64,000 bases of DNA from positions 248,001 through 312,000 of the forward strand of contig QPGO01000089.1 in assembly GCA_008632985.1 (NCBI GenBank), in the 5' to 3' direction. Position 1 is the first letter of the stretch. Each line of letters starts with the position of its first letter. A program made the translations under genes and the position numbers. The DNA is from Psammoneis japonica (taxonomy: Eukaryota). The notes under the pieces are model-generated. The model searched no databases. It was not told where the DNA came from and saw only the letters and a program-made list of their open reading frames with translations. Positions 29,276 through 30,980 of this stretch are shown here, piece by piece.

Positions 29276-30980
29276 CTCAAGGTGTGAAAACAAAAGTTAC
29301 CTCCTTAGAATGCTCTCATTCTGTAGATGTTGTTATTGCCATTGATTGTGTCATAATTCCGAGTCATTGTAAAGCAACGGCTACTTGAGCAAACGCACCA
29401 TGATTTTGGTGCGGAAACCAGCTGGCTAGAGAGTAGTTGCGAGGAGCCGCAGTTCTAGATCTACTCAATGTATGAAAACAAAACTAACATCATTAGAAAC
29501 CTCTCGTTCTGTAGATGATTTTATTGCTATTGATTGTGTCATAATTCCAAGTAGTTCTAAAGCAATGCACACTAGAGCAAAACGCACTGGGATTTGGGCG
29601 CGCAAATGCGGGGTTGGCATGATGTCTGGATGACAACACGGATCTGCTAGATGTATGGAAATAAAAGTATCATCATTAGAAAGCTTTCATTCTGTAGATG
29701 ATGTTATTGCCATTGATTGTGTCATAAATCCGAGTTATTCTAAAGCAACGCCCACCTGAGCAAAACGCACTACGATTTTGGCGCGGAAACCAGCTAGCCA
29801 CAGCAGTTGCGGGTAGCCGCAGATCTGGATCTACTCAAGGTATGAAAACAAAACTAACACCATTAGAAAGCTCTCAATCTGTAGATGATGTTATTGCCAT
29901 TGATTGTGTCATAAATCCGAGTTATACTAAAGCAACGCCTGCCTGAGCAAAATGCACTCATGTGATTTGGGCGCGGAAACCAGCTAGCTAGCAGTTGCGG
30001 GTAGCCACAGATCTGGATCTACTCAAGGTATGAAAACAAAAATAACACCATTAGAAAGCTTTCGTTCTGTAGATGATGTTATTGCTATTGATTGTGTCAT
30101 AAATCCGAGTCACACTAAAGCAACGCCTACTTGAGCAAAACGCATTGGGATTTTGGCGCGCAAGGGCATGTGCGGGGTTACGGGTAGCCGCAGATCTGGA
30201 TCTATTCAAGGTATGAAAACAAAACTAACACCATTAGAAAGCTCTCAATCTGTAGATGATGTTATTGCTATTGATTGTGTCATAAATCCGAGTTATACTA
30301 AAGCAACGCCTGCCTGAGCAAAATGCACTCATGTGATTTGGGCGCGGAAACCAGCTAGCTAGCAGTTGCGGGTAGCCACAGATCTGGATCTACTCAAGGT
30401 ATGAAAACAAAAACAACACCATTAGAAAGCTTTCGTTCTGTAGATGATGTTATTGCCGTTGATTGTGTCATAATTCTGAGTTGTTCTAAAGCAACGCCTA
30501 CTTGAGCAAAACGCATTGTGGGATTTGGGCGTGCAAGGGCATGTGCGGGGTTACGGGCAGCCGCAGATCTGGATCTATTCAAGGCATGAAAACAAAACTA
30601 ACACCATTAAAAAGCTCTTGTTCTGTAGATGATGTTATTGCCATTGATTGTGTCATAATTCCAAGTTGTTCTAAAGCAACGCCTGTTTGAGCAAAACCCA
30701 TTGGGATTTGGGCGCACAGTCGCAAGTGGGGGGTTACGGGCATCCTCAGATCTGGATCTACTCAAGGCATGAAAACAAAACTAACACCATTAGAAAGCTC
30801 TTGATCTCTAGAGGATGTTATTGCCATTGATTGTGTCATAATTCCAAGTTGTTCTAAAGCAACGCCTGTTTGAGCAAAACCCATTGGGATTTGGGCGCAA
30901 GGTCGCAAGTGGGGGGTTGCAGGTAGCCGCGGATCTGGATCTACTCAAGGTATGAAAACAAAAGTAATGTCACTAGAAAG
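29276..30980 (+). repeat. Tandem satellite, ~183-188-bp unit, about 9 full copies plus a partial tenth, inside the Harbinger element
   Basis: Recurrent ctcaaggtatgaaaacaaaa...tctgtagatgatgttattgc.attgattgtgtcataa...taaagcaacgcc at ~29276, 29463, 29650, 29833, 30021, 30204, 30392, 30577, 30760 and 30943. Confidence 0.95.

Follow-up and report, generated by a model that had tools for sequence, protein, structure and literature searches.

A tandem array inside a Pangu-like DNA transposon of the diatom Psammoneis japonica as a probable record of TpA-directed mutation

The tandem array in the 64,000-nucleotide stretch of Psammoneis japonica DNA analysed here (the window) is the internal array of PIF/Harbinger-superfamily elements. 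The explanation that we favour overall, as a reasonably probable one, is that the array is a transposon intergenic repeat and that its TA/TG/CA columns record a light dose of a TpA-specific mutator. The direction of change, from TA to TG or CA, is supported by comparison of sequences, mainly from outside the window, and the decisive evidence for it comes from target-site duplications and sister copies. This direction, together with the inheritance of the array's states from a donor, appears very probable indeed. The three columns in which the pattern was noticed are in themselves modest, weak evidence.

Results

The array had been taken for a satellite in an earlier note on this DNA, a description that does not survive a look at its borders. 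It is bracketed by inverted repeats and a target-site duplication and moves as a unit, and a free-standing satellite is therefore rejected. The features of the locus are as follows.

27850..31593, no strand assigned: outer Harbinger-type MITE with 37-bp inverted repeats and a TTA duplication; TA-intact, host to both insertions listed next
28540..28856, no strand assigned: foldback MITE of 317 bp, TA target duplication; TG at the paralogous empty site (L059)
28880..31479, + strand: ORF-less Pangu-like DNA transposon of 2.6 kb that carries the array; supported by copies at two other sites and an empty-site joint
28880..28893, + strand: left terminal inverted repeat of 14 bp, beginning AG
31466..31479, - strand: right terminal inverted repeat
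28877..28879 (left, + strand) and 31480..31482 (right): target-site duplication AAT; supported by an empty-site paralogue in L059 and by public contigs
29276..30981, + strand: tandem array, non-coding, 9.2 units of 183-188 bp; identified by TRF and unit alignment
1..16000, no strand assigned: TA-free block; others lie at about 22700-24400, 48960-54250 and 55380-57690

The window element contains no ORF with similarity to a transposase, and it is filed as Pangu-like and non-autonomous because it is without ORFs. Pangu (PHIS) elements are characterised in the available text of Han et al. 2015 (PMC4482050) by ANT targets, AG or GG ends and two ORFs. The target rule, 5'-ANT-3', holds in the window and in L031/L032 (AAT) and in L033 (AGT, with AGC as the left copy), and the ends conform to the rule of 11-40 bp inverted repeats starting with AG or GG, being 14 bp long with an AG start. 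The two ORFs, one of them a DDE transposase, are missing from the window element and present in the ANT-targeting families G2 and G3, which have the array in common with it and not the arms. A TA-free relative of the element's left end, followed by a different short tandem repeat, lies at about 2000-3100 in L068.

The window element is likely to be a DNA transposon that jumped recently, and it holds 135 intact TA steps, 102 of them in the array. Public contigs, which represent one sample and possibly the source of the assembly itself, contain a 2,603-bp empty-site joint for this element, with three ambiguous letters, and a 3,747-bp empty-site joint for the outer MITE at about half the depth of the flanking unique DNA, approximately that of a single haplotype. 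The half depth suggests that the whole nest at 27850..31593 lies on one haplotype, and its three nested transposons, all TA-intact, are probably hemizygous.

A search of the 91-Mb genome with the array gave at least 161 matches. Thirty array loci were fetched, and a profile yielded 199 unit matches in those loci and the window; 151 near-full units, all outside the three young copies described below, were aligned, and 143 were counted once two duplicated loci had been dropped. A search of Rfam with the array returned no match at E<=0.1. Of the 23 PF13359 transposase matches in the genome, eight adjoin these arrays (two of them confirmed separately). Families G1, with TWA targets, and G2 and G3, with ANT targets, carry it with the transposase on one side and a second, convergent ORF on the other, and a single 183-bp array is common to ANT- and TWA-targeting families with unrelated ends (L034, L036, L037, L054 and their sisters). 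The convergent ORFs of the array-bearing relatives are depleted of Tyr. The transposase of G3 is on the opposite side of the array compared with G1 and G2. In five insertions (L031/L032, L037, L053, L054 and L058), read in the orientation of the array, the left flank is TA-free and the right one TA-rich, as though the element lay at a domain boundary or created it; other copies do not conform to this arrangement.

The nine dinucleotides on which the earlier note had built its three-state columns are all where it placed them. Among the nine full units of the window, the column aaggTAtg (column 1) reads TA in six, as the claim of TA in most units had it, CA in two and TG in one. The column cgccTAc (column 2) reads TA in three, TG in four and CA in two, and gagtTAt (column 3) reads TA in three, TG in three, CA in two and AG in one, a state that the earlier note had left out; TA is the majority in column 1 only. 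The claim that CG is absent from these columns is borne out. It had also been proposed to compare TA with other A/T columns, and the former are indeed the more variable: over 123 core columns, transitions affect 7 of 18 TpA bases and 5 of 58 other A/T bases (one-sided Fisher p=0.005), with 6 of 18 against 4 of 58 when three near-duplicate units are removed (p=0.009). Transversions show no such excess at TpA (2 of 18, against 10 of 58 other A/T bases). Five of the nine core TA columns are invariant among the window units; in three of the five the top-strand A is followed by a purine, and two belong to the coldest class, YTAR.

Taken as a whole, the array shows no depletion of TA: its TpA observed/expected ratio (O/E) is 0.74, compared with 0.63 for the TA-normal DNA of the window and 0.04 for the TA-free blocks. 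The DNA in which it lies is TA-normal. The TA-free blocks, in which CpG O/E is 0.33 against 1.01 in gene-bearing window DNA, are the end state of the TA-loss process. The array units of the genome span graded copies, from 12.5 down to 0.7 TA per 125-bp unit core.

Evidence for the direction of change was sought where it does not depend on a tree. Both ends were seen in 12 insertions, and in seven of these the target-site duplication pair mismatches; judged against the ANT or TWA target, all seven mismatches are TA>TG or TA>CA. At sites where three sister copies read CA or TG and the least-mutated copy reads TA, the sisters disagree at 28 of 47 in G1 and 24 of 38 in G2 (52 of 85 in total), compared with 52 of 834 and 32 of 689 background sites (84 of 1523), counts that are not independent, each site being common to three copies. 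Such discordance between CA and TG argues for independent loss of TA and against its gain. Comparison of window positions 28147-28536 with the L059 paralogue gives the same picture, with 32 of 34 TA steps lost (17 to CA and 15 to TG, two kept) and no TA gained in the alignment.

For the columns themselves, 24 units from four TA-rich outgroup arrays have TA at column 1 in 16 and at column 2 in 17, and CG, which the earlier note had named as the outgroup state that would speak against it, in none. Column 3 is TC in the majority of outgroup units, and its TA therefore arose in the window lineage; the proposed TA ancestry holds for the first two columns and fails for the third. Across the 143 family units, the counts of TA, CA, TG and CG are 24, 63, 51 and 4 at column 1 and 30, 59, 46 and 0 at column 2. 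The suggestion that either strand can be mutated agrees with the tree-free tests, in which CA and TG both arise. A maximum-likelihood tree of the units was used only to recognise orthologous unit sets; ancestral states were not taken from it because models of independent sites rebuild TA or CG out of mixtures of TG and CA. In L031, L054, L058 and L036 the left inverted repeat opens with G, which was discounted as evidence of polarity because Pangu ends may start with GG, and the asymmetry between left and right junction changes (7 against 3 of 12) involves too few cases for significance.

These tests bear on two further accounts of the columns. The earlier note had offered the columns as its best evidence for direction; the direction was right, but the columns alone are compatible with a CG ancestor, because CpG decay to TG or CA followed by RIP-like C>T change to TA yields the same three states. 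The CpG bases of the array, its most variable class (6 of 8), lend this history some colour, as does one column where five window units read CG and 11 of 24 outgroup units read TA, from which it follows that states do cycle. However, the polarity of the target-site duplications, the sister discordance, the TA majority in the outgroup and the loss of Tyr codons all lead away from TA, and TA-poorer copies do not contain more CG. A CG ancestor is already largely refuted by the target-site duplication pairs, in which TA is fixed by the target rule, and we regard it as extremely improbable. Ordinary drift in a tandem array, with three columns picked by eye, might likewise be argued from a set of just nine related units in which more than half of the core TA columns are invariant. 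Yet the window units already give p values of 0.005-0.009, and the far stronger signal of the sister copies refutes drift at the family level, leaving it with hardly any likelihood.

The claim that mutation is in progress at this locus is not supported. The element was found in four assemblies representing three insertion sites (the window, L031=L032, and L033), which differ by two substitutions and small indels, and none of the 102 TA steps of the array differs across the three insertions. It is therefore most likely that the three-state columns were inherited from a lightly mutated donor and predate the landing of the element here. What was described as an early stage is apt in the sense of a light dose. 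The sole TA/CA difference among the young copies, at 31048, is outside the array; the window has TA there and its three counterparts have CA, a contrast that carries no polarity. The nearest thing to the process caught in the act is found elsewhere, in the near-identical duplicates L050 and L051, where the array contains two of the three differences in 5 kb, both at TA steps. The left flank of L031/L032, which diverges faster, was set aside as evidence, since a conversion tract explains it equally well.

The sister comparison also defines the spectrum of change. Of 1,780 comparisons at TpA bases (at sites shared by three sisters, and so not independent), 553 show a transition and 8 a transversion; for other A/T bases the figure is 120 transitions in 9,685. 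Loss depends on the base 3' of the mutated A (TAC 0.46, TAT 0.40, TAG 0.25, TAA 0.17), with little further effect of the base preceding T, and YTAR accounts for 36 of the 61 TA survivors in the TA-free blocks of the window, compared with 276 of 1533 TA steps in normal DNA. Per 1000 bases, A>G change amounts to 74 at TpA (an underestimate), 5.9 at CpA and 4.1 at RpA, with AA no hotter than CA; outside TpA it is more than tenfold rarer and follows the same 3'-pyrimidine rule, a bias common to all contexts. TpA is strongly preferred without being the sole target. There is no transcription-strand bias in the ORFs in symmetric contexts (112 sense and 122 antisense changes). Private CpG losses in ORFs are few (3 of 95 in L037, 4 of 84 in L054) where TA is nearly gone, so that the erasure of TA runs ahead of CpG decay. 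A comparison of ORFs with array gave no significant coupling between the two kinds of loss (52/716 vs 18/340, p=0.29). Transposon ORFs and MITE copies are erased while gene-bearing window DNA keeps its TpA O/E of 0.63. At the level of sequence comparison, we regard the anatomy of the element, the direction, the near-exclusive transitions, the TAY preference and the lack of strand bias in ORFs as established.

The short TA-free island at 22700-24400 differs from a public contig at 17 places; several of these are CA/TG flips and suggest that another allele or copy was erased independently. At 52157-54003, TA-free open frames read like decayed host-type repeat-protein genes and suggest that the mutator also reaches gene copies. 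The window further contains a 49-bp tandem array at 61399-61720 and, at 35384-36352, a 351-bp coding repeat within a secreted-looking protein rich in Cys, Ser and Thr. Homologues of one window protein come from diatoms wherever the source name identifies an organism.

Within the array-bearing relatives, two full-length copies have erased genes and a largely intact array. The inferred TA retained in L037 is 7 of 51 in the ORFs and 87 of 101 in the array, and in L054 it is 9 of 50 and 47 of 54, contrasts that persist after stratification by context (p<1e-9). In the other six of the eight G1 and G2 copies, stratification leaves an array advantage that is gone or borderline (p 0.049-0.81; L058 borderline). 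General protection by the array was accordingly rejected, the raw counts being significant in seven of eight copies and the stratified counts in L037 and L054 only. Background transversions do not differ significantly between ORFs and array. The lightly hit arrays of L037 and L054 lose their hottest sites, RTAY, first (7 of 13 and 3 of 13 lost), in which they resemble the window array. The second ORF of G2 has few discordant sites among sister copies, and part of the erasure therefore preceded the spread of G2. In L053, a TA-rich 0.9-kb insertion about 1400-2200 bp into the element breaks a TA-free transposase, which shows that erasure does not at once extend to DNA inserted into an already erased element.

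Discussion

We propose for this diatom a mutator specific to TpA that causes A>G (T>C) change on both strands of transposon DNA and is likely to be an adenine-deaminating host defence. In this model the mutator would be aimed at transposon genes or silent domains and not at repetition as such, and would reach the array later than the genes. The ORF-less window element would have escaped so far, as ORF-less derivatives may do for a time, and the differences between its units would have arisen in an earlier donor.

Adenine deamination by an enzyme of the TadA/ADAT fold has, in our estimation, a little under an even chance of being the chemistry involved; it is suggested by the near-pure transition spectrum and by the TA preference of TadA-derived editors. 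TadA itself prefers TAC and TAT. A search of the genome for deaminase domains found five matches of the TadA-like family and no special candidate among them, all five looking ordinary (TadA, ADAT2, dCMP-deaminase and a deaminase-dioxygenase fusion). The fusion, at 316-1791 of L090 (- strand), joins a deaminase domain to what we take by eye to be a 2-oxoglutarate/Fe dioxygenase domain. ADAT2-like and TadA-like genes are thus present, but such genes are general. The TadA-derived editor ABE8e causes A>G change at TA motifs genome-wide and on either strand (bioRxiv 10.1101/2022.02.09.479813); it is an engineered enzyme, for which the available text of that preprint gives no 3'-base rule, and the available text of a review of deaminases (PMC10661471) likewise contains no context rule for TadA.

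The lack of strand bias misfits simple deamination of a displaced non-template strand, and it would fit a lesion in double-stranded DNA. It is conceivable, if rather unlikely, that the initiating event is a thymine lesion or an error of repair synthesis, either because a thymine-modifying enzyme marks RTA and the product mispairs with G, or because an error-prone polymerase fills in repair patches within silent chromatin. In the sequence, T>C at RTA and A>G at TAY look alike, and the failure to find an unusual deaminase in the genome is in keeping with this idea. Polymerase eta, however, has a spectrum centred on the WA motif, which is unlike the excess of 553 transitions over 8 transversions at TpA and the finding that AA is no hotter than CA; moreover, the small CpG loss in L037 and L054, a proxy for repair triggered by 5mC, speaks against such repair as the source. 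A different objection concerns targeting, which we infer from two copies and which competes with selection on the donors that transpose. There may be no preference for genes at all, the array being TA-rich in young copies because only donors with an intact array, as a terminator or binding platform, continue to transpose, or because domain edges happen to fall so. The array refuge is clear in just two of eight copies, TA retention at the right end of G2 follows the neighbouring flank, and the TA-rich younger insertion within the TA-free arm of L053 indicates that timing alone can make mosaics. Against this, the array and the 3' ends of the genes form the centre of the spared zone in both L037 and L054, at equal background divergence, and discordant CA and TG in the transposase would require four separately erased donors per family. 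We consider donor selection or domain edges a possible account, with perhaps a one-in-three claim, and it touches targeting only and is therefore compatible with the main result on direction. That the genes were hit before the array, by targeting, seems to us slightly more likely than not.

Fungal RIP kills transposons through targeted, context-specific transitions, with C>T change at CpA/TpG that makes TpA. The diatom process is alike in its targeted, context-specific transition mutagenesis of transposons and opposite in direction, TpA being lost and not gained. It also differs from RIP in that, in the least-mutated copies, a tandem array is spared relative to single-pass genes.

The closest known case, described in a preprint by Mettrop et al. 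(bioRxiv 10.64898/2026.01.13.699255), is that of Bigelowiella natans, where integrated NCLDV and virophage DNA undergoes A>G hypermutation at TpA only, as measured in mutation-accumulation lines; an ADAT-type deaminase was proposed there. The rate is raised about 1000-fold there, and the process is active in some lines only (bioRxiv 10.64898/2026.01.13.699255). Both cases share TpA>TpG/CpA change on both strands, foreign or mobile DNA as the substrate and clusters poor in TpA and rich in CpA/TpG, the TpA-poor genes of B. natans including DDE and RT domains; the almost pure A>G/T>C spectrum and confinement to mobile DNA with sharp limits are both found in the diatom. B. natans is, however, a rhizarian whose viral inserts, as reported in the same preprint, keep much of their TpA (Rho 0.45), in contrast to the near-complete erasure of diatom transposons (O/E 0.04), and the process was measured directly there, whereas in the diatom it is inferred from copies of class II transposons. 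The TAY preference and the weak activity outside TpA seen in the diatom go unreported in the available text of the preprint. A literature search at the level of titles and listings found no relevant report of TpA hypermutation in a diatom.

Concerning the host elements, tail-to-tail ANT- and TNA-targeting Harbingers are described in the available text on Ectocarpus (PMC12477816). The ANT duplication and the 11-40 bp inverted repeats are like those of Pangu and the Ectocarpus Harbingers, with convergent ORFs that include a DDE transposase found only in the array-bearing relatives. An array extending across ANT and TWA families is not mentioned in the available text for either Pangu (PMC4482050) or Ectocarpus (PMC12477816), and titles and listings searched for a Harbinger-internal array contained nothing relevant. 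What this analysis adds is the recognition of the array as part of a transposon, the polarity that target duplications give independently of any tree, the absence of strand bias and the order of genes before array.

A more far-reaching picture, which we regard as speculative and on balance unlikely in its entirety, would be a DNA adenine-editing defence of diatoms that is the reverse of RIP, recognises T-A-pyrimidine on either strand and is guided to the genes of transposons. The transposase and its partner ORFs would be destroyed first, with the shared 183-bp array and derivatives lacking ORFs escaping and the non-autonomous copies surviving the masters that had been erased. The array might serve as a boundary or anti-silencing element that unrelated families of Harbinger and Pangu have retained.

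The process behind these columns is a striking one, of which the array offers one more view. Beyond what scans of composition can provide, the array family adds a tree-free proof of direction, graded copies and a map of the first hits within an element, and the young, likely hemizygous element with its 135 intact TA steps is a ready assay in culture. If real, the process would represent a natural A>G DNA mutator directed against transposons in a second, distant algal lineage, here run to completion, and would bear on DNA adenine editing as a eukaryotic defence, with a natural enzyme of interest for base editing.
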